Below, piece by piece: positions 4,629 to 50,888 of a stretch of DNA of 64,000 bases. The DNA is from an uncultured Gemmatimonadaceae bacterium. Lineage in GTDB: Bacteria; Gemmatimonadota; Gemmatimonadetes; Gemmatimonadales; Gemmatimonadaceae. Positions within the stretch are counted from its first letter, which is position 1. The number at the start of each line of letters is the position of its first letter. Made by a program: the position numbers and the translations under genes. The stretch spans positions 1,056,001-1,120,000 of the forward strand of contig OY970320.1 in the NCBI GenBank assembly GCA_963716745.1, read 5' to 3'. The notes beneath the pieces were generated by a model, which saw nothing but the letters and a program-made list of their open reading frames with translations, had not been told where the DNA came from and made no database searches.

Positions 4629-6572
4629 ATGACATTGGTCTCCATCTCCGGCGTCCGCGTCGATTTCGGCGCCACGACGATCGTTCAGGACATCACGTTC
4701 ACCGTCGCGCGCGGCGAGCGTTGGGGCATCGTGGGCCGCAACGGCGCCGGGAAGACCACGCTCTTCCGCGTGATCACCGGCGATGTGGTGCCCGTGGACG
4801 GATCGGTCGCGCGCCTGCCCGGACTCCGCGTGGCGCTGCTCGATCAGCAGCGGGACTTCGGCGGTGCGGTGACGGTGTGGGAAGCCGCGGCCTACGGGTA
4901 CCGCGAAGTGATCGCGCTCGAGAAGTCGCTCGCCGAGCACGGCGAGGAATTGGCGCGACTCGGCGACAGAGTCTCGCAGGCGGACATCGAGCGGTACGGT
5001 CACGAGCAGGAACGCTTCGCGCACGCCGGCGGCTACGATTACCACGCGAAAGTCGACGCAGTGCTGCAAGGACTCGGCTTCGATCCGGGCGAGGCGCACG
5101 GCCGCGCGCTCGCGAGCCTGAGCGGCGGCGAGCGCGGCCGGCTCGGCCTCGCCGCGCAGCTCGCGTCGCCCGCCGACCTCGTGCTGTTGGACGAGCCCAC
5201 GAACCACCTCGATCTCGACACCACGCGCTGGCTCGCCGAGTTCCTCGAGTCGTACGACGGCACCGTGATGATGATCTCGCACGATCGCGCGTTCCTGGAC
5301 GACACGGTGGATCACGTGCTGCACGTGAACGCGAAGACGGCCATCGCGTACCGCGGCGGCTACTCGTCGTTCGTGACGCAGCGCGCGGAGCGCCAGCTCG
5401 CGCAGGAGCGCCAGGTGGCGCAGCAGCGGAAGTTCATCGAGAAGGAGGAGGACTACATCCGCCGCAACATCGCGGGGCAGAACACCGCGCAGGCGAAGGG
5501 GCGGCGCACGCGCCTCGCGCGATTGCCGCGATTGTCGCCGCCGCCGGGCGAAGGGAGCGTGCTGAGCTGGCGGCTGGAGATCGCGGAGCGCGGCGGCGAC
5601 CAGGTGCTCGTGGCCGACAAACTCACCGTGGGCGTGGCGGGGCGCGTGCTGGTGCGCGATTTCTCCGCGTCGGCGCGCCGCGGCGATGTGATCGCGTTGG
5701 TCGGCCCCAACGGTGCCGGAAAGAGCACGCTGATCGCGACACTCTTGGGCGAGCGGCAGCCGATCGCGGGCGAGGCGCGCGTCGGCGGATCCGTCGGGGT
5801 CGAGTGGTTCCGGCAGGACCTCGAGCAACTTCCCAAGGACCGCACGCTCTACGATTGCATCGAGGACCTGCGCCCGCAGTGGACGCGCGGCCGCATCCAG
5901 AATCACCTCGGCAACTTCGGATTCTCGGGCGATGAAGTGCGCTGGAGCACCGCCACGCTGAGCGGCGGCGAGCGCGCGCGGCTTGCGCTCGCGATGCTCA
6001 CGCTCGGCCACGCGAACCTGCTGGTGCTCGACGAACCGACGAACCACCTGGACGTCGAGACGATCGAGGGTCTCGAGGACGCGGTGGAGGAGTACGAGGG
6101 AAGCGTGATCCTCGTGAGCCACGACCGCGCGTTCCTGCGCGAACTCGCCACGCGCGTGTGGGCGTTCCACGGCGACACGATCGAGGATTTCGCGGGCCCA
6201 TTCGTGGAATGGGAAGCGCACGCCGCGAATCGCACGGCGCGCCAGGAGAAGGCCGACGCCGAGCGCGCAGCGGCGCAGCGCGAGCAGACGCGCACGGCCG
6301 CGAAGAAGGCCGCCGCGAAGAAGGAGAGCGCGCCGAGCGACAAGAGCACGCGGAAGGCGGCCGAGGCCGGCGAACGCGAAGCGCAGCGGCTCGAAGCGCG
6401 CGTGGCAGAGTTGCAGCGCGCGCTCGAGGATCCGGCGCTCTACGGCTCCGGCGCCGACGGCGCGCGCCGCGCGGGCAAGCTCAAGGCCGAGCTCGCGGCC
6501 GCGACGCGCGAGCGCGATGCGGCGCTCGAGCGTTGGACGCTCGCGGTCGAGGCGCTCGAGAGCGGAGCGTAA
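4629..6572 (+). CDS. ABC-F family ATPase (Uup-like)
   Basis: Two NBDs: GRNGAGKTT/LSGGE/LLDEPTNHLD and GPNGAGKST/LSGGE/LVLDEPTNHLD; no TM segments; C-terminal coiled coil. Confidence 0.95.
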   Translation: MTLVSISGVRVDFGATTIVQDITFTVARGERWGIVGRNGAGKTTLFRVITGDVVPVDGSVARLPGLRVALLDQQRDFGGAVTVWEAAAYGYREVIALEKSLAEHGEELARLGDRVSQADIERYGHEQERFAHAGGYDYHAKVDAVLQGLGFDPGEAHGRALASLSGGERGRLGLAAQLASPADLVLLDEPTNHLDLDTTRWLAEFLESYDGTVMMISHDRAFLDDTVDHVLHVNAKTAIAYRGGYSSFVTQRAERQLAQERQVAQQRKFIEKEEDYIRRNIAGQNTAQAKGRRTRLARLPRLSPPPGEGSVLSWRLEIAERGGDQVLVADKLTVGVAGRVLVRDFSASARRGDVIALVGPNGAGKSTLIATLLGERQPIAGEARVGGSVGVEWFRQDLEQLPKDRTLYDCIEDLRPQWTRGRIQNHLGNFGFSGDEVRWSTATLSGGERARLALAMLTLGHANLLVLDEPTNHLDVETIEGLEDAVEEYEGSVILVSHDRAFLRELATRVWAFHGDTIEDFAGPFVEWEAHAANRTARQEKADAERAAAQREQTRTAAKKAAAKKESAPSDKSTRKAAEAGEREAQRLEARVAELQRALEDPALYGSGADGARRAGKLKAELAAATRERDAALERWTLAVEALESGA

Positions 6573-12504: not shown

Positions 12505-12591
12505 AACTGCAGACCTAGACGCTAGACCTAGACGCTAGAATGCGTCCGTAGCTGCTTTCTAGCGTCTAGGTCAGCGTCTAGGTCTGCAGTT
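12505..12591. terminator. Long hairpin built of CTAGAC(G/C) repeats, likely terminator/REP-like
   Basis: aactgcagacctagacgctagacctagacgctagaa ... ttctagcgtctaggtcagcgtctaggtctgcagtt; overlaps the stop codon of the Ig-domain gene. Confidence 0.65.
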
Positions 12592-19191: not shown

Positions 19192-21639
19192 ATGCTGAAC
19201 GATCTCAAGTTCGCCGTCCGCAGCCTGCTCCTCGCGCGTGGATTCACACTCGCCGTCGTACTCACGCTCGGCCTCGGCATCGGCGCCAACACCGCGATCT
19301 TCAGCGTCGTGCGCGGCGTGCTCCTGCGCCCCCTGCCTCACCGCGACGGCGACCGCCTCATGTATCTCCGCCAGAGCGCCGACGGGCCCGGCCGCGAGGA
19401 CGTCGCGTTCTCCGTTCCCGAGATCAACGATTTCCGCGAACAATCCAAGACGCTCGGCGGCATCGCCGAGTACTCGCCGTACTCGCTCACACTGCAAACG
19501 GATCACGACGCGGTGAAGCTCGACGTCGGACTCGTCACGGGGAACTACTTCACCGTGATGGGGCTCGCGCCCGTGCTCGGCCGCCCCTTCGACAGCCGCG
19601 ATGACGGCAAGGGTGCTGCGCCGGTCGTGATGTTCACGTACGCGTACTGGAAGCAGCATTTCGGCGGCGATAGTTCGATCATCGGCAAGACGCTCACGAT
19701 CGGCGCGAAGCCGGTGCTGGTCGTCGGGGTGCTGCAGCCGGCGCCGTACTTCCCGGCGCGCATCGACGCCCTCATGAACATGGTGAACAGCGAGCACCAC
19801 CTCAGCGCGACGATGGTCCAGGGCCGCACGCACCGCATGACGCAGATGATCGCGCGCCTCGCGCCCGGCGCCACGGTGGCACAGGCCCGCGCCGAGGTGC
19901 ATGACATCACCAAGCGCGTGCATGCGGACCATCCCGAGGCGTACGACGCCGCGTCCAATTATCACGTGACGCTCACGCCCTTCCACGAAGTGCTCGGCGA
20001 GAAGGCGCAGCTCACGCTCTGGCTGCTCATGGCCGCGGCCGCGTTCGTGCTCGTGATCGCGTGCGCGAACGTCGCGAACCTCACGCTCATGCGGGGCGTG
20101 CGCCGCGAGCACGAGCTCGTAGTGCGCGCGGCGCTGGGGGCCGGCACGCGCCGACTGCGCCGCCTGCTGCTCGCCGAGAATCTCGTGCTCGCGCTGCTCG
20201 GCGCGGCGTTCGGCCTGGTGATCGCGTTCGCCGGCGTGCAGATGCTCATCGCGTTCGCGCAGCGCTACAGTCCGCGCGCCGGCGAGATCAGTGTGGACGG
20301 CATGGTGCTCGGCTTCGCCTTCCTGCTCGCGGTGGCCGTGGCCGTGCTGCTCTCCTTCGCGCCGACGCTGGCGCGCGAGAACGGATTGGGCGCGGCGCTC
20401 GCGCAGGGCGGGAAGCGCGCGAGCGGCGGCGTGCGCCGCCAGCGGCTGCAGCAGGGTCTCGTGGTTGCGCAGATCGCGGTGAGCGTCATCCTGCTCACCG
20501 GCGCCGGTCTGCTCACGCGCACCATGCAACAGCTCCAGAACGTGGACGACGGACTCGATGCGGGCCACGTGCTCACGATGGAAGTGCCGCACGATTTCAA
20601 CTACAAGGACAAGAGCGCCGTGGTCGCGCGTTACCAGCAGATGCAGAGCGAGGTGGCGGCGCTTCCCGGCGTCACGGAGGTGGGCATCGGTTCCACGATG
20701 CCGCTGCGCAGCGCCGGATTCCTGCTCGACGTGAAGGGCGAGGGGCATGAGGTGGCGCCCGGCGAGCCCGCACCGCAGGCGGAGTATCGCACGGCCAATC
20801 CCGACTATTTCAAGGCGGCCGGGATCCCGCTCATCGCCGGGCGCGAGTTCACCGCGAACGACGGGCCCGTGCCCGCGTCGCCTATGGTGGTGATGGTGAA
20901 CAAGACACTCGCTAACCTGCTCTTCCCGGGGCAGGACGCCGTGGGCCGCCGCATCGCCTGGACGGGGGACGTGCTCAAGTTCGTCGGCATTTCAGGAGAC
21001 TGGCGTACTATAGTAGGGGTCGTGGGCAACACGAAGGACGGCGGCCTCGACGCCGCGGCGCTGCCCGTGGTGTTCCTGCCATTCGCACAGAGCGATTTCC
21101 CGTCGGGCGGGCTGGTGATCCGCTCGAAGGGCGACGTTGCGGCGGTGGGGCCGGCCGCGACGCGCATCGTGCGCGGTCTCGCGCCCGACCAGCCGATCGA
21201 GCACGTGATGACCGTGGACCAGATCCGCGACGAGAGCGTCGCGCCGCGCCGGCTGAACGCCGCGCTCGTCGCGTCGTTCGGCATCCTGGCGCTCGTACTC
21301 GCGACGATCGGCATCGGCGCGGTGCTCGTCTTCTCCGTGAGCGCCCGCACGAACGAGATCGGCATCCGCATGAGCCTGGGTGCCGATTCCGGCCGCGTGC
21401 AGCGCATGATCCTCTCGGAGGGCGGCCTGCTCGTGATCACGGGGCTCGTGATCGGAGTCGGCGGGTCGCTCTGGCTCTCCCGTCTCATGCAGGGACTGCT
21501 CTTCGGCGTCGCGCCGCACGATCCGGCCACGCTCGGCGCCGTGGCCTTCACGATGGCATTCGTGGGAGTGGCGGCGTGCTGGATACCGGCGATTCGAGCG
21601 GCGCGCATTGAGCCGGGTGTGGCATTGAGGGCTCAGTAA
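19192..21639 (+). CDS. ABC transporter permease, ADOP type
   Basis: [60 protein letters not shown]. Confidence 0.95.
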   Translation: MLNDLKFAVRSLLLARGFTLAVVLTLGLGIGANTAIFSVVRGVLLRPLPHRDGDRLMYLRQSADGPGREDVAFSVPEINDFREQSKTLGGIAEYSPYSLTLQTDHDAVKLDVGLVTGNYFTVMGLAPVLGRPFDSRDDGKGAAPVVMFTYAYWKQHFGGDSSIIGKTLTIGAKPVLVVGVLQPAPYFPARIDALMNMVNSEHHLSATMVQGRTHRMTQMIARLAPGATVAQARAEVHDITKRVHADHPEAYDAASNYHVTLTPFHEVLGEKAQLTLWLLMAAAAFVLVIACANVANLTLMRGVRREHELVVRAALGAGTRRLRRLLLAENLVLALLGAAFGLVIAFAGVQMLIAFAQRYSPRAGEISVDGMVLGFAFLLAVAVAVLLSFAPTLARENGLGAALAQGGKRASGGVRRQRLQQGLVVAQIAVSVILLTGAGLLTRTMQQLQNVDDGLDAGHVLTMEVPHDFNYKDKSAVVARYQQMQSEVAALPGVTEVGIGSTMPLRSAGFLLDVKGEGHEVAPGEPAPQAEYRTANPDYFKAAGIPLIAGREFTANDGPVPASPMVVMVNKTLANLLFPGQDAVGRRIAWTGDVLKFVGISGDWRTIVGVVGNTKDGGLDAAALPVVFLPFAQSDFPSGGLVIRSKGDVAAVGPAATRIVRGLAPDQPIEHVMTVDQIRDESVAPRRLNAALVASFGILALVLATIGIGAVLVFSVSARTNEIGIRMSLGADSGRVQRMILSEGGLLVITGLVIGVGGSLWLSRLMQGLLFGVAPHDPATLGAVAFTMAFVGVAACWIPAIRAARIEPGVALRAQ

Positions 21640-21650
21640 ACGGCAAACGG

Positions 21651-21748
21651 CCGGGAACCGATTACCGGGAACCGGTGAGGCATGACAACACATGGAGTTA
21701 ATGCCATGCGTTTGCATGCATCACCGGTTCCCGGTAACCGGTTCCCGG
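21651..21748. repeat. Hairpin with 7-mer-periodic arms (CCGGGAA/CCGGTTA)
   Basis: 28-bp arms 21651-21678 and 21721-21748 with one mismatch. Confidence 0.8.
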
Positions 21749-21767
21749 TTCTTTGCAGTTGACCGTC

Positions 21768-21788
21768 ACCTCTTGACAAACAAGAGGT
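21768..21788 (+). promoter_or_regulatory. Palindromic operator overlapping TTGACA, likely PadR site
   Basis: ACCTCTTG-acaaa-CAAGAGGT, about 40 bp upstream of padR. Confidence 0.65.
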
Positions 21789-27864: not shown

Positions 27865-28023
27865 CTGTTGACTGTAGACTGTCGACTGTAGACTGGCAGT
27901 CACTCGAGGACTGTTTACTGTCTACTGCAATTCAAACGGCCTGGTGCTCGGAAGCCACCAGGCCGTTGGAATTGCAGTCACCAGTCAACAGTGATCCAGT
28001 GCACGACAGTCAACCGTCAACAG
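27865..28023. terminator. Large hairpin with GACTGTN heptamer flanks between convergent genes
   Basis: Inner stem actgcaattcaaacggcctggtg / caccaggccgttggaattgcagt (27924-27978); flanking gactgta/gactgtc and cagtcaa repeats. Confidence 0.7.
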
Positions 28024-33967: not shown

Positions 33968-35656
33968 TTAGTCGTCGATCGCCGGCATCACCTTCACCGG
34001 CTTCTTCGGATCGAGCAACGGCACCGGGTTCCCTGGATTCTTCAGGTTCGGCACGAGATCGTTCAATGCGCCGCCCGGGATGCGCTGGATGTTCGGATAC
34101 TTCATGATCGACATGTCGAACCCGATCAGGACAGGATAGACGAGCGACAGCGCCCAGCCATTGTCTTCGCCGGCGTACTTGCCGGGCGACTCGCCGGGCA
34201 TGCGCAATGCGACGGCGCCATTGAACGTCATGGAGTACTTCTCGTACGGATCCATGGTGAGGTTGTAGATCGCGCCGATCGATCCGAGGTTCTGGTCCGG
34301 GCCCAGCCAGGTGTCCTTAGCGGTGTACAGGTACTTCCAAGCGATATGCACCCACGGCTGCGCCGGGTCGCCGCCAATGTCGGCGCGCATGCCGAGGAAA
34401 TTCTCGCCGTCGATATAGATCCAACTCTCACGCGCCGAGTGCATGGTCTTGCCCGTCACGTAGGCGCTGTTGTCGATGCCATCGAAGTAGATGGGCTTGC
34501 CGGCGTTGTCGGTCCACTCGCCCGTTGGCGGAGGCTTGAGGCCCACCATCGCGGCGACCGTCGGCCACACGTCCATGTGCGACATCATCTCATCGAGATG
34601 CATGCCCGCCGGGATCTTGCCCGGCGCCCACATGATCCCGGGCACGCGCCAACCGCCTTCGAACGCCGTTCCCTTCTCACCGCGGAACGGAACGGTACCG
34701 GCATCCGGATACGCATCCTGCCACGCTCCGTTGTCGGCGCTCACGACCACGATCGTGTTCGGCGCATCGGCGCGGATCGCATCCATGATCTTGCCCATGT
34801 TCGAATCGAGCTCGAGCATCGCATCGGAGTAATTGCCGAGGTGCGACTTGCCGGCGAATTCCTTGGACGGGTGATTCGGGTTGTGCATCTTCATGAAGTT
34901 GACGTCCATGAAGAACGGCTTCGCGTCCTTGGCGTGCTCCTTGATGTACGCGATGGCCGACGCCGTCTGGCGCACATCGAATTCCGCGAGCGACTCCCAC
35001 GTGATCAGCTCGCCCTTCACTGCGGGTTTACCGGCCGTCCCCGACCACTCGTGCAGGTTCACGGCGTCCTGGTACATCTTCCAGAATTCCCCATTGTACA
35101 GCGGGAACCACGGGTGCATATGTGCCGACGTGTCGCTGTACGTGTATACGCCGGGATAATACGCCGCGAAGTTCCGCATCTCGTCGAAGCCGTGCTCGAT
35201 CGGATAGAACTCCGGCTTGTCGCCGAGATGCCACTTGCCGGAGAAGTACGTCTGGTAGCCGTTCTTCTTGAAGAACTCGGCGATCGTGGGCGTCTCCTTG
35301 TGCAGGCCGTTCTCGTCGCCCGGCGCCACCACGATCGAGAGCGCCGAGCGAATCGGAATACGCCCCGTGATGAAGGATGCGCGGCCGGCGGTGCAGCTGG
35401 CCTGGCCATACCAGTTCGTGAAGTAGGTGCCTTCCTTCGCAATGCGGTCGATGTTCGGCGTGGGGTGGCCGAGCGCGGCGCCGCCGCCCGACATGTAGCC
35501 CCAGTCGCCCCATCCGGTGTCGTCCGTCATCAGCATGACAATGTTCGGCTTCTTGGCCGACCCTTGCGCATGCGCCGCGACAGGCGCGGCAATGATCACG
35601 GCCGCGGCCAGCGCGGCAATGCGCATCACGCTGCTTCGAACTTCCGGCATTCGCAT
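33968..35656 (-). CDS. Arylsulfatase (Cys-type formylglycine)
   Basis: KPNIVMLMTDDTG; SCTAGR; GKWHLG; SADNG; FEGGWRVP. Confidence 0.95.
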   Translation of the reverse strand: MRMPEVRSSVMRIAALAAAVIIAAPVAAHAQGSAKKPNIVMLMTDDTGWGDWGYMSGGGAALGHPTPNIDRIAKEGTYFTNWYGQASCTAGRASFITGRIPIRSALSIVVAPGDENGLHKETPTIAEFFKKNGYQTYFSGKWHLGDKPEFYPIEHGFDEMRNFAAYYPGVYTYSDTSAHMHPWFPLYNGEFWKMYQDAVNLHEWSGTAGKPAVKGELITWESLAEFDVRQTASAIAYIKEHAKDAKPFFMDVNFMKMHNPNHPSKEFAGKSHLGNYSDAMLELDSNMGKIMDAIRADAPNTIVVVSADNGAWQDAYPDAGTVPFRGEKGTAFEGGWRVPGIMWAPGKIPAGMHLDEMMSHMDVWPTVAAMVGLKPPPTGEWTDNAGKPIYFDGIDNSAYVTGKTMHSARESWIYIDGENFLGMRADIGGDPAQPWVHIAWKYLYTAKDTWLGPDQNLGSIGAIYNLTMDPYEKYSMTFNGAVALRMPGESPGKYAGEDNGWALSLVYPVLIGFDMSIMKYPNIQRIPGGALNDLVPNLKNPGNPVPLLDPKKPVKVMPAIDD

Positions 35657-35921
35657 GTTCGTATCCTCGTCAATTTTCGTTGGGAGCGATCCGGCGGGGG
35701 ACGCCAGCCTGTCTTACCGCGTACAATAGAACAGGTCTCGAAACAGCCCGGCAATACGACCAAAGGACTACGAGATGCTGGTATCGAAATCGCGGCCCTT
35801 AGCATGGTAACGAACGAGCCACGTCGCAAGCCGCGCGCCCGGCCGGAGCGCACGCGCCGCCGATAGCGCCTCACCCCGGGGGCGACTAGCGTAGTGCGTC
35901 ACCTTTTCACTGGGAGGAGCC

Positions 35922-36353
35922 ATGAACCGGAAAGCGCTTCAGATCCTGGTCCTGACCGCCGCGCTGGGCATGCTGAGTTCGGCGTTGGCCGCACAGAACC
36001 CGCCGCCGAAGAAGCCGCCGGCCCCTCCGGAGCGCCACGCGCCGCCCCCGCCACCGCCGCCGACCGGCGCAGCCGGATCGGGACCTCCGTGTCACGGCTC
36101 CGATGTCGCCCAGTATCTGCAGTCGCCGAAGACGCTCATGACGACCTGCCTGCACCGAATGGTCCAGCTCGGGACGGACACGAACGACTACACCGTGATG
36201 TCCGTGACCGATGCCGGGTTCGTGCTCGCTAGATCGGAGGCTGGCAACGAAAGAAACGGAAGCCCGGTCATGACGAAATTCGTACCGTGGAGCGCGGTGC
36301 TCTACTACAACATGATGCCGGAGTTCGTGCAGGTCGCGCTGGTGCGGCAATGA
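35922..36353 (+). CDS. Secreted hypothetical protein, paralog of 36900-37346
   Basis: GGAGG RBS; signal peptide; Pro-rich linker; VTDAGFVLAR and FVPWSAVLY motifs. Confidence 0.8.
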   Translation: MNRKALQILVLTAALGMLSSALAAQNPPPKKPPAPPERHAPPPPPPPTGAAGSGPPCHGSDVAQYLQSPKTLMTTCLHRMVQLGTDTNDYTVMSVTDAGFVLARSEAGNERNGSPVMTKFVPWSAVLYYNMMPEFVQVALVRQ

Positions 36354-36844
36354 TGCGCGCCGCGGTAGTCGCGCTTGCGGCGGTCGCGATCGTGGCGGCG
36401 CGGTCGGTGGGGCAGCAGCCAGTGCCACCCAACCGGTTCCCCACGAACGCGGACGTTTCCGCGAACGTGACCACGCTGCATCCGGACTCGGCGAGAGCCG
36501 GCCAGCGGTTCGACATCACCGTCGAAGTGACGAACAACGGGCCGCAAGCCGTGGGTGCGATCGAACTCACGCTCGAGCCCACCCTGCTCGTGATCCGGAA
36601 CGTCACCGCGAGCGGACACACGCTCTCGTGCAAGAAAGGCGCCTCGCAGGCCAAGGTGCCGCCGATCACGTGCGAGTTTACGGGAACGCTGAACGTGCAC
36701 GCCCACGTGGACATCGTCGTGACGACGACCGTGACCGGCAAGAACGGTGAATTCGCGAAGCTGTCGGCCACGGTGAAGGGCGCGGCCAACGATCCGGCGC
36801 TGGCGAACAACAGAGTCACGAGGAACTTCAGCATCAGCAATTAG
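36350..36844 (+). CDS. Secreted DUF11-type Ig-like domain protein
   Basis: ADVSANVT..AG...ITVEVTNNGP...DPALANN; ATGA overlap with upstream stop. Confidence 0.75.
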   Translation: MMRAAVVALAAVAIVAARSVGQQPVPPNRFPTNADVSANVTTLHPDSARAGQRFDITVEVTNNGPQAVGAIELTLEPTLLVIRNVTASGHTLSCKKGASQAKVPPITCEFTGTLNVHAHVDIVVTTTVTGKNGEFAKLSATVKGAANDPALANNRVTRNFSISN

Positions 36845-36899
36845 CGCGCGGCGCCCGGAGCGGCTACCGTAGGAGTTCACCCTCCTACGGAGCCGAGCC

Positions 36900-37346
36900 A
36901 TGCATCGGAACGCGCTTGAAACGCTCGTCGTGATCGCCGCCGCAGCTACGTTCGCCCTCGGTGTGCGCGCGCAGACCGCGGCGAAGACCGCAAAGCCGGC
37001 GACCGCCGTGAGAACGACGGTCCCGCCGCCGGCCCCCGCTCCCGCGCCGCAGGGCGGATCCGCGAACGCCAGCTGTCGCTCGACGGATCTGACCGGCCAA
37101 TGGACCTCGACGCGCGCGCTCATGACGCGCTGCCTCAACAAGGTGATCATATTCGGCTCGGACCCGAGCAGCTACAGCGTGACGGCCGTGACCGACGCCG
37201 GCTTCGTTGTCGCGCGCGTGAACATCGAGGCCAGCGGCCAGGCGCACAACCAGAAAGTCACGCGGTTCATCCCGTGGTCGTCAGTATTGTACTTCGCCAC
37301 CCTCGGAGATTTTGTGGATATCGTCCTCGTACGCGAGCCGACATGA
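36900..37346 (+). CDS. Secreted hypothetical protein, paralog of 35922-36353
   Basis: Signal peptide; Pro-rich linker; VTDAGFVVAR and FIPWSSVLY motifs. Confidence 0.8.
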   Translation: MHRNALETLVVIAAAATFALGVRAQTAAKTAKPATAVRTTVPPPAPAPAPQGGSANASCRSTDLTGQWTSTRALMTRCLNKVIIFGSDPSSYSVTAVTDAGFVVARVNIEASGQAHNQKVTRFIPWSSVLYFATLGDFVDIVLVREPT

Positions 37347-38690
37347 TCACTCATTGCCGGTCGACCATGCCAATCATGTCGATCCTGTCAAAGCAGTTCT
37401 TTGACAGGATCAACATGATCTACGTGGTCGGCGCGCCAATGCTGGCTCTAGTCGTCGCATGCAGCAAGAGCGATTCCACGAGCCCCGGCGGGACCACCGG
37501 GACTCTCGCCATCACGATCACCGCGCCGGGCGGCGTGACGCCCAAGGTGACGGTGCTCGGCCCGGCCGGCTACCGCATGGTCATCACGTCGACCCAAACA
37601 CTCAACTCGCTCGCGCCGGGCAGCTACACGATCTACGCCGGCGCGGGCGCGACCACCGATCCGATCGTCGGCACGGGATACGCCGGCACGGTGACAGGCA
37701 GTCCCGCCACCGTCGCCGCCAATGCCCAGTCCGACGCAAGCGTGACGTACGCATCGGCATGGCGCAGCGCGGGTGTGCTCTGGGTGGCGAACGAAGTGGG
37801 TCTCACGATCTCCGGATTCTCTTCGGCGAATCTTGCGCACACCGGCGCGCCGACGCCCGCCGTGGTGATCGGGAACGGCACCAGCACGAGCGCGGCGCGC
37901 GCTAGTATTGCGCTCGCGCTGGATGATGCCGGCGGTCTCTGGGAGAGCAGCATCACCGACACGCTGCGCTATTGGACCGCCGCGCAGATCGCGAACAGCA
38001 CGAATGCGGCGCCGAGGATCATCGTGGTGCCCTCATTGCAGTCGCCCACCGCGCTCGCCATCGATGCGCAGGGCGATCTGTGGGTGGCCGACCAGTACGG
38101 GAACACGCTGAACGAATTCACCGCGAGCCAGATCGCAACGAGCCGGCACGAAGACGCCCGCCGTCGTCATCAGTGCGGCCTTCGGCACCATCATGCGGCC
38201 ATGGGCCCTCGCGTTCAATGCGCTCGGCAACCTGTGGGTGGCGAACCTCAATGGGAATTCGGTGGCCGGCTTCGCGGCGGCCGATCTCACGACGACCGGC
38301 TCACCGCTGCCGTTCGCCGGGATCACCGGAGCACAGGGCGTCCACAAACCCGTCGGGCTCGCGTTCGACGCGCAGGGCAATCTTTGGGTGGGCACCGTGC
38401 TCGATTCGCTGTCGCGTTTCAACGCGAGCGACCTCACGGCGATCGGGTCGCCCACGCCCACGGTGATCCTCTCGGGCGTGTTGCTCCAGAGCGAGTACGG
38501 ACTGGCGATCGACAACAGCGGCGCGTTGTGGGTGGCGAGTTGGCAGACGAACACGCTGTTGCGGTACGACGCGAACCACCTCACGACGGGAGCCTTGCCC
38601 GACGCGACGATCAGCAAGACGGGGGCATCGATCGCTTTCCCCACGGGGATCGCATTCTCGCCGGCGTGGGGGCAACTGCCGGTGCATTGA
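37343..38690 (+). CDS. Lipoprotein with NHL/beta-propeller repeats (frameshift ~38140; start 37343 or 37439)
   Basis: LALVVAC lipobox; repeated (L/I)A(F/I)D..G.LWV units. Confidence 0.8.
37362..37430. repeat. Repeat family B doublet 1
   Basis: atcatgtcgatcctgtcaaag-cagtt-ctttgacaggatcaacatgat. Confidence 0.9.
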
Positions 38691-38703
38691 GGCGGTTCAA
38701 CTA

Positions 38704-38770
38704 CATCGCGTACATCATTTGCATTGTGTCAACGAACTGCTTGACAGGATTGACATGATGGACACGAATG
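38704..38770. repeat. Repeat family B doublet 2 (left arm degenerate)
   Basis: tgtcaacgaactgcttgacaggattgacatgatggacac; centre resembles the reverse complement of doublet 1. Confidence 0.85.
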
Positions 38771-39191
38771 CGGGCGCGCCGTTCATAACTCCGCGCGCGC
38801 GGATCCGGGGCAGACGGTGCTTGCGTTTGAACTGCAGTCGCTCGGCGCCGAAGTTGAGTAGCAGGCCGACCTCCAAGCCAGTAGCAGTCAAATAATGCAC
38901 GAGTTGCATCTCGTGCGCCTTGTTCAACACATCTACTGCCTTCAGTTCCAGGATCACGGTACCCTGCACCGTGATGTCGGCGATATACTCGCCGACGGAT
39001 TGACCCTCATACACGACGGCGATCCGTCGCTCTCCGTCGGATTGGATCCCGGCGCGCCGCAGTTCCAGTAGGAGAGCCCTTCGATACACGATCTCGAGGA
39101 ATCCGGGTCCGAGCGTGCGGTGGACCTTCATCGCGAGCCCGATAACGCGCCCCGTCAGCGGATCATCGTGCGCAGTCCCCATCATGTCCAT
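38715..39191 (-). CDS. GxxExxY protein (PD-(D/E)xK nuclease fold)
   Basis: VHRTLGPGFLEIVY; YIADITV..VILELKAV; QLVHYL.ATG..VGLLLNFG. Confidence 0.95.
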   Translation of the reverse strand: MDMMGTAHDDPLTGRVIGLAMKVHRTLGPGFLEIVYRRALLLELRRAGIQSDGERRIAVVYEGQSVGEYIADITVQGTVILELKAVDVLNKAHEMQLVHYLTATGLEVGLLLNFGAERLQFKRKHRLPRIRARGVMNGAPAFVSIMSILSSSSLTQCK

Positions 39192-39269
39192 CGTGTTAAT
39201 CCTGTCGAGCTGTTTCTTAGTACCGGCGAGATAAGGGCTTTGACAGGATTAACATGATTGACATGATGG
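39179..39269. repeat. Repeat family B doublet 3
   Basis: catcatgtccatcgtgttaatcctgtc-35 nt-gacaggattaacatgattgacatgatg. Confidence 0.9.
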
Positions 39270-39362
39270 ACGACCTCAGCATCGATCCGATGCGCCAGTC
39301 ATCGCTCGGCGCTGCACCCCGAGAGTGAACCTTGGATGGCACGTCGGACGTACGGGATTCTC

Positions 39363-39836
39363 ATGAGACTCGCCACGGTCACCATCCTCGCGCTGCTTGC
39401 CGCGCTGGCGCCGTTGCGCGCGCCGAGCATCGCCTGCCCCGCGAGCGACGCCGCCGCGTTCGCGTGGTGGCCGGGGACGTGGAGCTATTCCGTGCCGCAC
39501 TTCGATCCGGGGGTCACGACGGTGACGGCGACGAGCGGCGGCTGCGTGCTGCACGAGGAGTTCGTGGACATTCGCGACAACAAGGCGCACACCACGATCG
39601 AGTACGACGCCGCCGCGAGGATCTGGAAGCGTACCGTGACGGATCCCTTTCGCACCTATCATTCCACGGGAACATTCTCGCCCGACGGCACGATCGCGTT
39701 CTACGAGACGCTCACGGATCGCGAGAGCTACCGCCCCATCGACCACGATCACGTGCGATTCTTCGGCGAGAAATCGACCGATGACGGTAAGACATGGACG
39801 CTTCTCTTCGACGCGACCTATTCGCGGCGCCCCTGA
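39363..39836 (+). CDS. Secreted hypothetical beta-rich protein
   Basis: Signal peptide; C...FAWWPGTW; GGCVLHEEF; STDDGKTW..LFD..Y.R. Confidence 0.75.
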   Translation: MRLATVTILALLAALAPLRAPSIACPASDAAAFAWWPGTWSYSVPHFDPGVTTVTATSGGCVLHEEFVDIRDNKAHTTIEYDAAARIWKRTVTDPFRTYHSTGTFSPDGTIAFYETLTDRESYRPIDHDHVRFFGEKSTDDGKTWTLLFDATYSRRP

Positions 39837-39859
39837 GAACGGACTCGAGCAGAGTCGCA

Positions 39860-39959
39860 GTTCCAATCATGTCAATCACGTTAATCCTGTCTAGTTGTTT
39901 ACTTGGACCGGTCGAATGAAGGCATGCGACAGGATTAACATGATTGACATGATGGGAAC
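39860..39959. repeat. Repeat family B doublet 4
   Basis: aatcatgtcaatcacgttaatcctgtc-36 nt-gacaggattaacatgattgacatgatg; spacer similar to doublet 3. Confidence 0.9.
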
Positions 39960-39980
39960 GGCGCCGCTAACCTCTGTACG

Positions 39981-40967
39981 ATGACAGTCATCGCGCCAAC
40001 CTCCACTCTCCCGTCTCTCGCCGAGCTCGAACACGCGAGCGCGATCGTGCATGCGGTGATGCCGCCGACGCCGCAGCAGCGCTGGCCGTTGCTCGACCAG
40101 CGCGCGGGATCCGAGGTGTGGGTCAAGCACGAGAACCAGACACCCGTGGGCGCGTTCAAAGTGCGTGGCGGTCTCGTGTTCTTCCATGACCTCGTCGCGA
40201 GCGGCATCACGGTGCCCGGCGTCGTCACCGCGACGCGCGGCAATCATGGTCAATCGATCGGACTTGCCGCCGCGCGACATGGCATCAAATCCGCGGTGAT
40301 CGTGCCCCACGGAAACAGCACCGAGAAGAATGCCGCCATGCGCGCGATCGGCGTGGAACTCATCGAGCACGGCGGCGATTTCCAGGCGTCGCTCGAGTAC
40401 GCCGCTCGCCTCGCGACGGAGCGCGGATGGTATCGCGTCCCATCGTTCCATCCGTGGCTCGTGCAGGGCGTGGGCACCTACGCGCTGGAATTCCTGCGCG
40501 GCGCGCCGGCGCTCGACACTGTTTACGTGCCGATCGGGCTCGGCTCCGGCATCTGCGGCATGATCGCGGCGCGCGATGCGCTCGAACTCCCCACGGAAAT
40601 CGTTGGCGTCGTCTCATCGCACGCGCCGGCGTATGCGCTCTCGATGGCCGCGGGCGCTCCAGTGGAAGCGCCGGCCACCACGGTGCTCGCGGACGGAATG
40701 GCGTGCCGCATCCCCGTGCCGGCCGCGCTCGACGCGATGCGCGGCAAAGTCGCGCGCGTCATCAGGGTCTCGGATGCCCAGGTGGCCGACGCGATGCGCG
40801 CGCTCTTCAGCGACACGCACAACGTGGCAGAGGGCGCCGGCGCGGCAGCGCTCGCCGCGCTGCTCACCGAGGCGCCCTCTTCGCGCGGCCGCGCCGGCAT
40901 CGTGATCTCCGGCGGCAATGTGGACCGCGAACTATTCGCGCGAGTCCTCTCTGGCGGGAACTGCTGA
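39981..40967 (+). CDS. Threonine dehydratase-like PLP-dependent enzyme
   Basis: VKHENQTPVGAFKVRGG; TRGNHG; VPIGLGSG; EGAGAAALAA; SGGNVD. Confidence 0.92.
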   Translation: MTVIAPTSTLPSLAELEHASAIVHAVMPPTPQQRWPLLDQRAGSEVWVKHENQTPVGAFKVRGGLVFFHDLVASGITVPGVVTATRGNHGQSIGLAAARHGIKSAVIVPHGNSTEKNAAMRAIGVELIEHGGDFQASLEYAARLATERGWYRVPSFHPWLVQGVGTYALEFLRGAPALDTVYVPIGLGSGICGMIAARDALELPTEIVGVVSSHAPAYALSMAAGAPVEAPATTVLADGMACRIPVPAALDAMRGKVARVIRVSDAQVADAMRALFSDTHNVAEGAGAAALAALLTEAPSSRGRAGIVISGGNVDRELFARVLSGGNC

Positions 40968-40969
40968 AG

Positions 40970-41034
40970 GCGCGTGTGGTCGTTGACCTGTGGCAAAGAC
41001 ACCGCCGTTGCCACACGTCAACGACCACACGCGC
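40970..41034. terminator. Hairpin between convergent genes
   Basis: gcgcgtgtggtcgttgacctgtggcaa ... ttgccacacgtcaacgaccacacgcgc. Confidence 0.7.
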
Positions 41035-41043
41035 ATCTGCAGT

Positions 41044-41577
41044 TTATTTGTACGGCTTATATGAGAACTTCTGTCCGCCCACGCTGGCCTCGTACATCAG
41101 GCCGCCCTTCGCGACCGTGAACACCGCGACGCCGCTCGAATACTTCGCGTCGGCACTCGCACCCGCCTTGAGCGCCACAGCGCTCACCTGCGCCGCGAAC
41201 TCGAAGTCCCCCTTCTTGAAGGCCTCGAGCGACTTCTGCGTCTCGAAGAAGATGACCTCCATGTACGACTGTCCACCCAGCTGCAATCCGATCGTGATCT
41301 GGGTCATCGAGCACTCGCCGATCGCGTTGCCGCCCACGAGCAGTTCACCGTCGCCATGCGCACCACCGATGCCGATCGCGCCCTTGCCCACATTGGGCAG
41401 CACCGCGTAGCCCGCCGCCGAGCTGAAGAACTTGGCGATCCCCGGATCCGTCTTCTTGATGTCGGCGATCGCGGCCAGAACATCCGCGTGCTCATCGGCT
41501 CGCACGGTCTTGTGTCCGGCAGCCGCCATGAGTGGCAGCGACAGCACGGCGAGCGCGAGTGATTTCATTGTATGCAT
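41044..41577 (-). CDS. Lipid-binding SYLF/Ysc84 domain protein
   Basis: AGYAVLPNVGKGAIGIGGAHGDG; IGLQLGGQSY.EVIFF; KGGLMYEASVGGQKF. Confidence 0.9.
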   Translation of the reverse strand: MHTMKSLALAVLSLPLMAAAGHKTVRADEHADVLAAIADIKKTDPGIAKFFSSAAGYAVLPNVGKGAIGIGGAHGDGELLVGGNAIGECSMTQITIGLQLGGQSYMEVIFFETQKSLEAFKKGDFEFAAQVSAVALKAGASADAKYSSGVAVFTVAKGGLMYEASVGGQKFSYKPYK

Positions 41578-41665
41578 TTCAAGCCTCCTTGGGTACTCGT
41601 TGAACTACGACCACATCCGAAGGTAGACGCGCAGCGACGATCTTGCAATTCCAGACGTGGGCAAT

Positions 41666-41856
41666 GCGCGTCTAGGCGCGAGTACCGCTGAAACAGCGCG
41701 TGTGGGCCGTAGTACCGCTTGAAAGGCGCGTATAGCAACGGAGCGTGTAGTACGGCATGGCGTGAGTTGGCGAGCGTACTACCAACTCACGCCCTGGAGT
41801 ACCATACGCTCAGTTGCCAGACGCGCCGTTTCAGTGGTACTAGGGCCTACACACGC
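41666..41856. repeat. Repeat family C copy 1 (~160-bp palindrome plus extra partial arm 41666-41695)
   Basis: gcgcgtgtgggcc..gtaccgcttgaa..gcgtgagttgg-loop-ccaactcacgc..ggtactagggcctacac. Confidence 0.9.
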
Positions 41857-41860
41857 ACCT

Positions 41861-44561
41861 TCAGCGCAATCGTCCCAGTTTGTCGGGCGGCAATTCGGTC
41901 ACCACGATGGTCCGCGTGAGCTTCTTATCCCCCATCGTGAGGTGCACGGTGTACGTGCCCGGCGGCACGCGCACCAACTCCGCGCGGTCGGTGGGTTCGC
42001 CCAATCCGCGCGGACGCGGCCGCTGGCTCGACAGGTCCCACGTCACACGCTGCAGTCCCGGCACGCCCGATCCCGTGATCGTGCGCACGGTGTCGCCGTT
42101 CGCACTGGTGATGACCAACTTCACGCCCTCCGCCTGCGGCTCCTTGATATAGTAGGAGATCACGGCGCCGCGCGGCGGATTCTGCCCCATGAACTGCGCG
42201 CTGCCGCTCGACGGCAGCGTGTGATGCCACCGGAATTGGTACGCCGGCGCCACCTCGAACAGATGCACCGGCGCGCCGAGCAGCGAATCGCTGTACTCTT
42301 CCGCCGCGCCCACGTTCGCGATGTAGATCCCGCGGCCGTGCGTGCCCACCACCAGCTCGTTCTCGCGGTGCGCGATCGCGAGCGCTTCCACCATCACGTG
42401 CGGGAAGATCCTTGCCGAAGCGGCGCCACCGCTGGCCGCCATCGAGCGTGGCGTACACACCGTCCGATGTGCCGGCGAACAGCACGCGCGCGTTGCGCGG
42501 GCTCTCGATCACGATCATGCTCCCGCGATCGGCGGGCAATCCATTCACCAGCTCGGTCCACGTGGCGCCGAAATCAGTGGTGCGCCAGATGTGCGGCCGG
42601 TAGTCGTCGCGATGATGACAGTCGAGCGCCACCCACGCGGTGCCGTCGGCATGCGCCGAGGCCGCGATCGAGGAGACGAAGCAATCGGTCGGCGCGCCCT
42701 TCGGGAATTTTCCCGTGGTATTGATCCACGTGCGGCCGGTGTCTCGCGACACCCAGATATTACCGTCGTCGGTGCCGGTCCAGAGCACGGCCGCGCTGCG
42801 CGGGCTCTCGGCGATCGAGAAGATCGAATGATAACTCGTGCTCCCCACCTCCGGCGCCGGCTTATCGCGCGGCGTCTTGGTCATGTCGGGGCCGAGCGCT
42901 TCCCAATCTTTCCCGCCTTGCTTCAGCCGGAACAAGCGATTCGCGCCGAGGTACACCGTGCCCGAGTCGTGCGTGGAGATGAGGATCGGCGTGGTCCAAC
43001 CCCACGTGAACGCGTAGCCGCTCTCCGCGCCCGCATCGAGCGACGCAGGCACGATGTCATCGCGCTTGAACGTGCGCAGATCGAGTTTGGACACGTTGCC
43101 GTACTGCCAGCCCGAGTACACCGTGAACGGATCGCGCGGCGGCACCTGCACCCACATGCCGTCGCCGCCGTTCACCGGATACCAGTCGGCATCGTCGATC
43201 CCGCTCGAATCTCGCGACGCACTCGGCCCGCACCAGACGCCGTTGTCTTGCAGGCCGCCGCACACCTGATACGGCGCGAGCGAGCTATCCACGATCACGG
43301 TGTAGAACTGGCCGATGGGCAGCGGCATGTGCCACCACGCCTTGCCGGCGTCGTACGTAACGTAGGCGCCACCATCGTTGCCGAGGATGCGATGGCCCGC
43401 GTCGTGCGGATCCATCCAGAGCGCGTGGTTGTCCACGTGCACGTTGAACAACGATTCCGGCGCGAATGTGCGGCCGCCGTCCTTGCTCTCGAGCAGCGGA
43501 CTCGCGGCGACGAACACGTGCTGCGAATCGTTGGGGTCCACGAAGATCGCATCGTAGTAGTAGTGCGGCTCCGCCTGCAGATCGTTCACTTGCGTCCACG
43601 TGGCGCCGGCATCGGATGAGCGGAACACGCCGCCGAACGGACCCTGCCCCGGACCGGTGATGCCGCGATCCACTTCGATCATCGCGAACACGAGCTTGGG
43701 ATCCTGCGGCGAGATCGCGAGACCGATGCGGCCCATCTTATCGAAGGGCAATCCGTTCTTCTTCGCGGCGTCGGTGAGTCGCACCCACGTCTTGCCGCCA
43801 TCGGTGGTCTTGTAGATGCCGCTCCCCTTGCCAACTCCTTCCATATGCGCGCCGCCCCAGCGCAGGCGATGCCACGCCGCGGCGTAGAGCGTGTTGGGAT
43901 CCTTCGGATCCATCGCGAGATCCACGAAGCCGGTGGTGTCGTTCACGAAGAGCACGCGCGTCCACGTCTTGCCGCCGTCGGTGGTCTTGTAGACGCCGCG
44001 TTCATTGTTCGGACCCCAGAGGTGGCCGAGCGCGGCGACGTACACGATGTCGGGATTCGCGGGGTCGATGACGACACGGCCAATGGCCTTCGAATCGGCG
44101 AGGCCCATGTTCTTCCATTTCTTGCCGCCGTCCACCGACTTGTAGACGCCGTCGCCCCAGTACTGCGACCGAAGGCTGTTCTTCTCGCCGGTGCCTACCC
44201 AAATGATGTTGCTGTCGCTCGGCGCGACGGCGAGATCGCCGATCGTCTCGCTGCCGAGTCCGGAGGAGATCGAGCGCCACGTGACGCCGGCGTTCGTCGT
44301 TTTCCATACGCCGCCGCCGGCCGCGCCGATATAGAACGTCTTCGGCCGCGCCTCGGCGCTCGTGGGCACGGCGATCGCCGTGACGCGGCCGGAGTACGCG
44401 GCGGGTCCGATCGCGCGATAGCTGAAGTTCGAGAGGAACTTCGAGACAGAATCGGCAGTGGTGTCGGGAGCGGCCGCGGGAGCTTTCTTGGCGGCGGGCT
44501 TCTGCGCGGCGAGGGGGAGCGCGGCGAGCAGGACGAGCACGAGCGAGCGGGACGCGAACAT
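41861..44561 (-). CDS. Secreted VPS10/sortilin-like BNR-repeat protein (frameshift ~42410)
   Basis: YRAIGPAAYSGRV; KTTDGGKTW repeats; HVDNHALW; GGLQDNG; GTHGRGIY. Confidence 0.9.
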
Positions 44562-44633: not shown

Positions 44634-44791
44634 GCGCGTGTAGGCCTTAGTACCGCTTGAGAAGCGCGTTTAGCAACTGAGCGTATGGTACGGCAGGGGC
44701 GTGAGTTGGGGTCCTTCCCACTCACGCTCCGCCGTACCATACGCTCAGTTGCCATACGCGCCGTTTCAGCGGTACCAGGGCCTACACCCGC
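44634..44791. repeat. Repeat family C copy 2
   Basis: gcgcgtGTAGgcc...ggcCTACacccgc full-length palindrome. Confidence 0.92.
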
Positions 44792-47457: not shown

Positions 47458-47618
47458 GCGCGTGTGGGCCTTGGTACCGCTGAAAGGGCGCGTATGGCAA
47501 CGGAGCGTATGGTACGACTCGGCGTGAGTTGGCACTACGTTCGCCCACTCACGCCCTGCCGTACCATACGCTCCGTTGCTATACGCGCTTCTCAAGCGGT
47601 ACTAGGGCCTACACGCGC
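47458..47618. repeat. Repeat family C copy 3
   Basis: Same arms as copies 1, 2 and 4 with a different loop; lies between convergent genes. Confidence 0.92.
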
Positions 47619-50737: not shown

Positions 50738-50888
50738 GCGCGTGTAGGCCCTAGTACCGCTGAAACGGCGCGTCTAGCAACTGAGCGTATGGTACGACAA
50801 AGCGTGAGTTGGAACGGCGCCACTCACGCCCTGTCGTACCATACGCTCAGTTGCTAGACGCGCTTCTCAAGAGGTACTAAGGCCTACA
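50738..50888. repeat. Repeat family C copy 4
   Basis: gcgcgtGTAGgccctagtaccgc...ggtactaaggcCTAC. Confidence 0.92.

Follow-up and report, generated by a model that had tools for sequence, protein, structure and literature searches.

In a 64,000-nucleotide stretch of the genome of an uncultured Gemmatimonadaceae bacterium (contig OY970320.1, positions 1,056,001 to 1,120,000; the whole stretch is called the window below), a small gene encoding a GxxExxY protein is bracketed by inverted arrays of 9-nt repeat units. Our favored reading, held with about even confidence, is that the locus represents one copy of a widespread selfish element, in which a PD-(D/E)XK nuclease gene of ~120 codons is bracketed by inverted unit arrays, the nuclease acts on the units, and the stem formed by the arms is processed in RNA. 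Comparison of loci showed that the gene and its arms travel together and that hairpins built of these units also occur without the gene, scattered in several copies per genome. The sequence comparisons further suggest that multiplication of the units is driven by the nuclease acting on them, and the predicted fold suggests that the arm stem may be processed in RNA.

Four hairpin doublets made of 9-nt units (consensus RACAKGATK) span positions 37362-39968, and this unit family was found nowhere else in the 64 kb. A 27-mer (GACAGGATTAACATGATTGACATGATG), searched with a tolerance of up to 3 mismatches, occurred four times with at most 2 mismatches each, at 39180-39206 (- strand), 39242-39268 (+), 39865-39891 (-) and 39928-39954 (+), and was matched zero times across the 100 shuffles used as control. 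A 17-mer core (GACAGGATYRACATGAT, up to 3 mismatches) was matched 12 times compared with 0.41 expected, always within 37364-39953. Period 9 was called by Tandem Repeats Finder (TRF) at 38741-38764, 39240-39271, 39864-39891 and 39928-39953. The four 9-mer doublets described in an initial annotation of this DNA are thus real. The accompanying statement that they lie only around this gene holds for the 9-nt unit family and fails for periodic hairpins in general, as other such hairpins and a set of ~160-nt palindromes occur elsewhere in the window.

All arms are given on the + strand. Doublet 1 consists of a left arm at 37362-37393 (ending ...CAATCATGTCGATCCTGTCAAAG) and a right arm at 37399-37430 (beginning GACAGGATCAACATGATC... 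and containing AGGA and, at 37415, ATG); the two contain core matches and are 84% complementary. In doublet 2 (38700-38775), the left arm is decayed and together with the spacer occupies 38709-38742; the right arm at 38743-38768 (GACAGGATTGACATGATGGAC), read in gene sense, bounds the GxxExxY cassette as its 3' arm and encodes ...VSIMSILS. Doublet 3 has arms at 39179-39206 and 39242-39269 with a complementarity of 93% and a 35-nt spacer at 39207-39241; in gene sense, its left arm forms the 5' boundary arm of the same cassette and carries the AGGA and the ATG of MDMMG, and its right arm reads GACAGGATT AACATGATT GACATGATG G, an exact match to the 27-mer. The arms of doublet 4, at 39851-39891 (27-mer match) and 39928-39968 (exact 27-mer match), are 88% complementary over 41 nt and separated by 36 nt. 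Folding as single-stranded DNA gave -26.5 kcal/mol for doublet 1 (z -8.2), -28.4 for doublet 3 (z -7.1) and -34.4 for doublet 4 (z -8.0); the fold of doublet 2 was no better than that of shuffles (z -1.06; 30/200 shuffles equal). The relationships proposed among the doublets were also recovered with spacers included: doublets 1 and 2 are inverted relatives (37391-37424 vs 38709-38742, 79%), and doublets 3 and 4 are direct relatives (57 nt at 77% and 56 nt at 80%), the doublet 3 spacer being itself a direct relative of the doublet 4 spacer (77-80%).

The order of open reading frames (ORFs) and coordinates agrees with the proposal that the doublets partition an NHL-repeat gene, the GxxExxY gene and a secreted-protein gene, and the gene-sense sequence agrees that the nuclease ORF begins (MDMM) and ends (VSIMSILS) inside arms. 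Along the gene sense, the cassette reads 5'-GACAGGATT AACACGATG GACATGATG-[ORF]-CATCATGTCAATCCTGTC-3', indicating that each doublet joins the 3' arm of a gene-sized unit, across a spacer, to the 5' arm of the following unit. AGGA followed by ATG is present within the 5'-type arm, and four reading frames start inside arms, namely those of GxxExxY, the NHL lipoprotein (37415) and two short upstream ORFs (uORFs). The first uORF, of 24 codons, begins at 39254 in the doublet 3 right arm (MIDMMDDLSIDPMRQSSLGAAPRE, then stop), and the second, of 14 codons, at 39940 in the doublet 4 right arm (MIDMMGTAPLTSVR, then stop); the TGA of the latter overlaps the ATG of a threonine dehydratase gene (39981) as ATGA (context CGATGACAG). 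The GC content was 0.585-0.60 across the GxxExxY gene and 0.56 at doublet 4, compared with ~0.61-0.72 in the flanking genes over 33-44 kb. Searches against Rfam returned no family for the arms in 35000-42000 of the window, where the sole match was a sub-threshold plant miRNA hairpin, and only tRNAs at 20 other loci. When a window doublet was compared with plasmids by blastn, a single short match was obtained, on a Spirosoma plasmid.

Imperfect palindromes of ~60-120 nt that delimit single genes would also be expected of an integron-like cassette array without integrase, with the doublets as attC sites. This reading, which we regard as barely credible, was rejected on the basis of orientation, core motifs and context: GxxExxY is opposite in orientation to its neighbours, the outer ends of the doublets lack RYYYAAC...GTTRRRY cores (motif compared by eye), no integrase was present among nine ORFs scanned in 35922-41577, and at other loci the arms form solitary hairpins in the spacers of housekeeping genes.

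The GxxExxY gene (38715-39191, - strand) encodes a minimal PD-(D/E)XK nuclease of 158 residues with its domain at residues 12-124; the protein starts with MDMMG and ends with ...VSIMSILSSSSLTQCK, both encoded inside arms. It matched PF13366 (E 6e-38, 130.2 bits, cut-off 22) and TIGR04256 (E 2.6e-39, 134.2 bits, cut-off 35), and the motif G30-x-x-E33-x-x-Y36 is present. In an alignment of 65 sequences, E33, D72 and E82 were invariant and K84 was at least 90% conserved, a pattern that corresponds to the PD-(D/E)XK catalytic set (E...D...ExK). The AlphaFold2 model was confident over the domain, with a mean predicted local distance difference test score (pLDDT) of 85.8 and the element order H H E E E H E E. 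The arm-encoded tails were poorly modelled (pLDDT 51-59), and the C-terminal one, which lies outside the domain, is probably read-through. Foldseek returned Cas4 SSO0001, lambda exonuclease and Hjc at a probability of 0.97-1.0 with low template modelling (TM) scores of 0.35-0.47, and listed the catalytic domain of the homing endonuclease I-Bth0305I at rank 39; these matches are taken as general members of the fold only. No sequence relative was found in the Protein Data Bank (PDB), and PADLOC gave no defence-family match for the protein. Tandem two-domain proteins accounted for 24 of 150 representatives, which hints that the enzyme unit works as a dimer. The PF13366/GxxExxY family comprises 15,182 representative clusters at E <= 0.001, and its function is given as 'Unknown' in the classification table of PMC3424549. 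In the papers searched, family-database curators' comments not included, we found no published account of an association of GxxExxY with repeat arrays; two other papers mention GxxExxY just in passing, and among the papers listed the unit sequences turned up only as primer matches.

The initial annotation proposed testing whether flanking repeats are enriched around GxxExxY genes in other genomes and co-vary with the protein, and both were observed. Eleven other loci were read as DNA, eight from plasmid records (tblastn) and three gene-bearing loci from the pattern scan described below; 11 complete loci (10 other loci and the window) entered a flank test with 200 shuffles each. The inverted flank match exceeded all or all but one of the shuffles in 8/11 loci, and a direct match did so in 2 more; the match of the Persicobacter locus (L003) was marginal. 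Period 9 was significant in at least one flank of six loci and period 11 in one. Units of GACAGGATT flank the gene in Chthoniobacterales (L007) and in Planctomycetota (L119, with three tandem hairpins), and GACAGGATG units do so in Gemmatimonadota (L076). In Gemmatirosa (L001), hairpins of an 11-mer (GGACTGAAGAA) stand on each side of the gene. Inverted units of CACAGAGGA, CACAGAGA and CGCGAAG were found in Bacteroides (L124), Bernardetia (L127) and Sphingomonas (L125), respectively, and one inverted unit in Treponema (L123). The flanks in Fusobacteria (L002) and Prevotella (L126) are direct repeats, and those in Persicobacter are AATCC-type 9-periodic direct arrays. The pairing of the gene with inverted short-period repeats is therefore family-wide and extends across several phyla.

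Protein divergence is accompanied by a change of the repeat unit. The window protein is 62% identical to that of L007, 56% to that of L076 and 57% to that of L119, the latter three sharing 49-55% identity with one another, and all four loci carry GACAGGAT units. The Bacteroides and Bernardetia proteins are 56% identical and have a common CACAGAG unit. Proteins with at most 48% identity had different units in every case.

The presence/absence check suggested with the initial annotation gave a case in two species of Sphingomonas. In Sphingomonas parapaucimobilis (L125) the order is fabD-[T-run-arm-gene-arm]-fabG, and in S. paeninsulae (L128) fabD and fabG lie ~30 nt apart with neither gene nor arms, indicating that the arms arrived with the gene there. 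In L007 it is gyrB and gyrA that flank the block. The arm-gene-arm block is thus an insertion/deletion unit between conserved neighbours. Hairpins are multiplied locally beside the gene: L119 has three in tandem, and the window has four doublets.

The dispersal of the arms was assessed by a pattern scan for (RACAKGATK)x3 over 596 Gb of genome contigs, which yielded at least 119 stretches; DNA was read with 3 kb on either side for 80 of them and with ~300 nt on either side for 39. By our own arithmetic, which assumes equal base frequencies, ~0.07 matches are expected by chance in 596 Gb. The matches listed came from ~100 assemblies (2-4 loci per assembly in 14 of them) and spanned more than ten phyla (Proteobacteria, Chloroflexota, Verrucomicrobiota, Planctomycetota, Acidobacteriota, Bacteroidota, Gemmatimonadota, Kiritimatiellia, Chlamydiae and others) as well as the archaea Methanoperedens, Methanosarcinaceae and Thermoplasmatales. 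A profile built from homologues detected GxxExxY in 3/119 of the matches listed and in 2/80 of those with 3-kb flanks; at these three gene-bearing loci the arms directly adjoin the gene, and L007 and L076 have an arm on either side of it. After removal of five loci with one-strand tandem or collagen-like coding repeats (L009, L010, L023, L048 and L053), the matches listed contained 60 close '+ then -' pairs (loops of 6-115 nt) and 9 '- then +' pairs. The neighbours of the arrays were ordinary genes (gyrB, pgi, purD, argG, hisF and that for RNase G). No recurrent transposase or other gene was found beside the arrays among the 189 ORFs scanned of 302 selected; these included one IS200-like/Y1_Tnp ORF (L027). 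Long-loop pairs in L004, L038, L047 and L049 enclosed genes without an informative family. The 11-mer hairpin of Gemmatirosa occurred at no fewer than 40 places on one plasmid and 30 on another, the gene being present on one of these, and three hairpins lie in the 33.8 kb around the gene, two of them bracketing it.

The excess of gene-less hairpins over genes, among the matches listed and on the Gemmatirosa plasmids, would also fit a homing endonuclease. GxxExxY would then be a free-standing homing endonuclease gene invading pre-existing, independently spread hairpins, which would be its targets and not its products. PD-(D/E)XK homing endonucleases exist, I-Bth0305I is among the fold matches, the gene often occupies the loop position of a '+ then -' hairpin, and a hairpin is nested within a loop in L004. 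The locus shares with free-standing PD-(D/E)XK homing endonuclease genes the tiny nuclease gene between conserved genes, the presence/absence pattern and the fold class; it differs from them in having its own inverted arms, in the occurrence of arms alone elsewhere, and in lacking an intron, an intein and a defined target gene. We consider homing quite unlikely: the empty Sphingomonas site is armless, the common unit in distant phyla and archaea would need the target to pre-exist everywhere, and the Gemmatirosa gene lies between two complete hairpins, not within one.

The tandem units contain TTGACA, and in loci of the Planctomycetes-Verrucomicrobia-Chlamydiae (PVC) group many arms have a T-run before them and, after them, genes whose leader (...GGATTAAGAAAGGA...) is fixed, features that fit binding sites of host regulators (iterons or TTGACA promoter elements) with an incidental proximity to GxxExxY. 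Such an origin appears very improbable, as the arrays are found in archaea as well as in over ten bacterial phyla, most loci are inverted pairs, GxxExxY genes of unrelated genomes are precisely bracketed by the arrays, and unit and protein co-vary.

At the DNA level, the selfish-element reading would have a nuclease dimer recognize the repeated units of its own arms and of gene-less hairpins and cut at them. Host break repair and slippage might then copy, multiply or nest the hairpins and occasionally copy the gene, and hairpins lacking the gene would represent footprints or non-autonomous copies comparable to miniature inverted-repeat transposable elements (MITEs) or REPINs. Cutting followed by host repair would explain the pile-up of four doublets around the gene in the window. 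MITEs and their parent transposons likewise have terminal inverted repeats with or without a gene, a gene-less majority and nesting (as in L004). The present loci differ from MITEs and terminal-inverted-repeat transposons in that there is no transposase of a known family, target-site duplications were not seen (L007 and L125), and the number of units per arm varies.

Several observations weigh against the selfish-element reading. GxxExxY was not found in the DNA read around 116/119 of the array loci listed, which are gene-less intergenic hairpins. Searches with the 27-mer and the 17-mer detected no further arm copy in the remaining ~61 kb of the window, suggesting that the arm family is not dense in this genome, and no GxxExxY gene lies near the 7/13/14-nt-unit hairpins or the ~160-nt palindromes of the window. 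The flanks are direct in the Fusobacteria and Prevotella loci and marginal in Persicobacter, and the arm topology around the gene in L076 is reversed relative to the window. A target-site duplication was seen neither at L007 nor at the Sphingomonas insertion. Arm complementarity was 21.7/27 to the own partner and 21.0/27 to arms of other loci, with no compensatory pairing signal; hence the unit is conserved and the pairing is not, which fits recognition of the unit and does not support selection for a structure. Because strands cannot be joined by a PD-(D/E)XK hydrolase on its own, any copying has to depend on the host. We know of no strand-transfer chemistry by a PD-(D/E)XK fold acting alone, which speaks against a literal analogy with RAYT transposases.

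That analogy, put forward in the initial annotation, survives in part. The association of gene and repeats, their dispersal and their co-variation agree with it; the gene-less majority, the lack of pair specificity and the absence of copies in the ~61 kb do not, nor does the lack of a Y1 transposase, as Y1_Tnp had no match in the GxxExxY gene or in any of the nine ORFs scanned in 35922-41577. Systems of REPINs (hairpin-forming doublets of repetitive extragenic palindromic, REP, sequences) and RAYTs (REP-associated tyrosine transposases) are the subject of PMC3116915, PMC3337134, PMC3479197 and PMC8266576, and among the papers listed on them none pointed to a PD-(D/E)XK partner. They have one small gene flanked by inverted repeat copies, with dispersed intergenic hairpin doublets and with different repeat families for different gene clades. 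The present loci differ in encoding a PD-(D/E)XK hydrolase in place of a HUH/Y1 transposase and in having arms that are arrays of periodic units. REPIN-RAYT systems are described as mostly vertically inherited (10.1101/2022.05.22.493013); unlike them, the occurrence of the same unit across phyla and domains suggests horizontal spread.

At the RNA level, the predicted fold of 38730-39215 (- strand) paired the 5' arm with the 3' arm around the entire ORF in both the minimum free energy and the centroid structures (z -4.2; 0/100 shuffles equal). An arm stem of ~27-35 bp would loop out the insert and hide the ribosome-binding site and start codon, and an architecture excised by RNase III in the manner of an intervening sequence (IVS) would let the element sit in operons with little harm. 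The 23S rRNA IVS, a comparison that the initial annotation does not make, is the closest described architecture. The IVS of Coxiella has a 28-bp terminal stem cut by RNase III, three or four tandem GACAGAT units with a Shine-Dalgarno (SD)-like sequence upstream of the S23p ORF, and a GC content below that of the host; the ORF has long been suspected as a mobility factor, an idea described as old and untested there (PMC4990558). PMC2672173 covers transposase-bearing IVSs only. Similar to the 23S rRNA IVSs of Coxiella and Leptospira, the locus has a small ORF inside a predicted inverted-repeat stem with tandem short units and an SD-like sequence just upstream, a GC content lower than that of the host, and a sporadic distribution suggesting horizontal transfer (PMC4990558). 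Unlike them, it lies between protein-coding genes (Rfam detected no rRNA in 35000-42000), encodes a PD-(D/E)XK nuclease instead of the four-helix-bundle S23p, has units of 9 nt instead of 7, and has many gene-less copies.

The predicted long-range stem enclosing the ORF would also suit arms that are mainly or purely RNA or structural devices, either IVS-like stems processed by RNase III or masks of the ribosome-binding site, by which a small gene acquired horizontally could be tolerated in operons, with gene-less hairpins as independent REP-like structural elements of RNA or DNA that spread by other means and a nuclease whose job is unrelated, such as repair or defence. The SD-like AGGA and ATG within the arms, uORFs that couple to downstream genes, and window hairpins of other units without a GxxExxY gene are consistent with such devices. 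So is the orientation of the gene, which follows that of its immediate neighbours in 5/5 annotated plasmid loci that have a GxxExxY feature and a neighbour on each side (L002, L123, L124, L125 and L127) and likewise in L126, and stems of ~23-32 bp resemble the 28-bp Coxiella IVS stem, an RNase III substrate (PMC4990558). This explanation, to which we assign a rather low probability, leaves unexplained why the sequence of the unit and not the pairing is conserved across phyla and archaea and why the units track protein similarity, and a job in defence is disfavored by the PADLOC result.

Translated arrays were also found at the ends of homologous proteins. Among the 119 closest homologues, which came from Planctomycetes, Verrucomicrobia, Balneolaceae and metagenome contigs, 51 had an N-terminal unit of the DRI/NRI/NMM type, 23 had at least two C-terminal units of the NPV/HPV type and 2 had both, so that 72/119 carried an array-derived tail; the same patterns had no match in the domain bodies. 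N-termini included MDMM, MNMMD, MDRIDGMT, MNKMNRIEE and SDRINRIDRIEE, and C-termini NPVNPVNPV and HPDNPVHPVKS, which are translations of GACAGGATT-type arrays and their reverse complement. In 150 more diverse representatives, 10 NPV-type tails and 10 tails with any 3-residue periodicity were detected, with none in the bodies. The tail of one homologue (P0168) spans two full doublets. Four-helix-bundle (S23p-like) genes may have comparable tails.

In five further homologues (P0128, P0132, P0133, P0141 and P0151; 377-408 aa), the GxxExxY ORF runs through NPV-type arrays into a prepilin-like N-terminus (..FTLLELLVAMAV..); these apparent fusions are probably gene-calling artefacts. Many close homologues lie on contigs of 500-3000 bases, which fits repeats that break metagenome assemblies.

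A generalization of the selfish-element reading, which we advance tentatively and with more doubt than belief, is that GxxExxY proteins would be the dedicated nucleases of an unrecognised class of mobile elements in Bacteria and Archaea, in which each clade recognises its own unit, multiplies hairpins and travels across phyla with them; the insert would be removable from RNA, and rRNA IVSs would be a special case with a different ORF. Such a clade-specific unit rule would give a large family without an assigned function a concrete candidate substrate, would also explain intergenic hairpins in more than ten phyla and archaea that break metagenome assemblies, and would suggest an origin for rRNA intervening sequences. 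In practical terms, gene callers translate arms into spurious DRI.../...NPVNPV tails and read-through fusions.

The NHL, secreted-protein and threonine dehydratase genes of the window are, most likely, not mobilised cargo but ordinary neighbouring genes whose spacers contain hairpins. The suggestion that the NHL and secreted-protein genes are mobilised cassettes found no support beyond the window, the one similar case being L004. The NHL/beta-propeller repeat lipoprotein gene (37415-38690, +; likely start 37415) has NHL, SGL and Reg_prop matches on both halves, and its translation from 37415 reads MIYVVGAPMLALVVAC. A frame change (+1) near 38140-38190 divides it into two ORFs, with ...NEFTASQIATS in one frame and GTKTPAVVISAAFGTIMRPWALAFNALGNLWVA in the next, and reflects either a pseudogene or an assembly error. 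Between doublets 3 and 4, a secreted protein of 166 aa (39336-39836, +) has no confident family; its only match was a sub-threshold one to Polyketide_cyc2, and NCBIfam and PADLOC gave none. The first gene past the cluster encodes the threonine dehydratase (39981-40967, +; PF00291 8e-62, NF004771 1e-148), a pyridoxal-phosphate (PLP) enzyme, and is directly followed by an unrelated 27-bp hairpin at 40970-41034. A PALP enzyme gene adjoins a GACAGGAT-type arm in three unrelated genomes (window 39981-40967, L018 3066-4097 and L071 1939-2898), a recurrence that may be due to chance.

Additional arrangements were observed among the scanned loci. In L004, the loop of a large hairpin contains a second, smaller hairpin with the same unit (2937-3123 and 4642-4819), and two direct copies of this nested composite hairpin flank a 507-aa ORF without a family match. 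In one Lewinellaceae metagenome-assembled genome (L064 29-291, L008 2887-3176 and L043 2889-3260), the arms run in a single direction at a spacing of ~49-125 nt, satellite-like and without hairpins. Other periodic units (CACAAAGG, GAAAGACRC, CACAGAGAA and GGTCAGAGG) adjoin GACAGGAT arrays in L051 (~2960-3100), L068 (~2950-3000), L036 (~2960-3150) and L061/L062 (~3030-3080), and in L051 a GACAGGAT array lies within the loop of a hairpin made of another unit. In the PVC-group loci L038, L047, L049 and L109, a solo arm is followed by the fixed leader ...GGATTAAGAAAGGA... and then ATG, resembling part of a 5' untranslated region.

Three intergenic hairpins of 7/13/14-nt units are present in the window at 12505-12591, 21627-21772 and 27865-28023. 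Their units are AGACGCT with a 13-mer, CCGGTTC with a 14-mer, and CTGTAGA with CAGTCAA, and their design is as in the 9-nt arms. They can be likened to the cyanobacterial short tandemly repeated repetitive (STRR) heptamers, which form intergenic tandem 7-nt arrays and for which we know of no link to a nuclease gene. The ~160-nt palindrome occurs in four intergenic copies within 10 kb (41686-41866, 44634-44791, 47458-47618 and 50743-50888), with arms of 61-85 nt that begin GCGCGTGTRGGCC... and are 79-87% complementary; it is a second, unrelated dispersed hairpin family. The hairpin at 40970-41034 begins with the same GCGCGTGTGG as these palindromes. Upstream of doublet 1, two paralogous small secreted proteins without a family (35922-36353 and 36900-37346) share ...VTDAGFV.AR...F.PWS.VLY-type ends, and a DUF11 protein gene lies between their genes.

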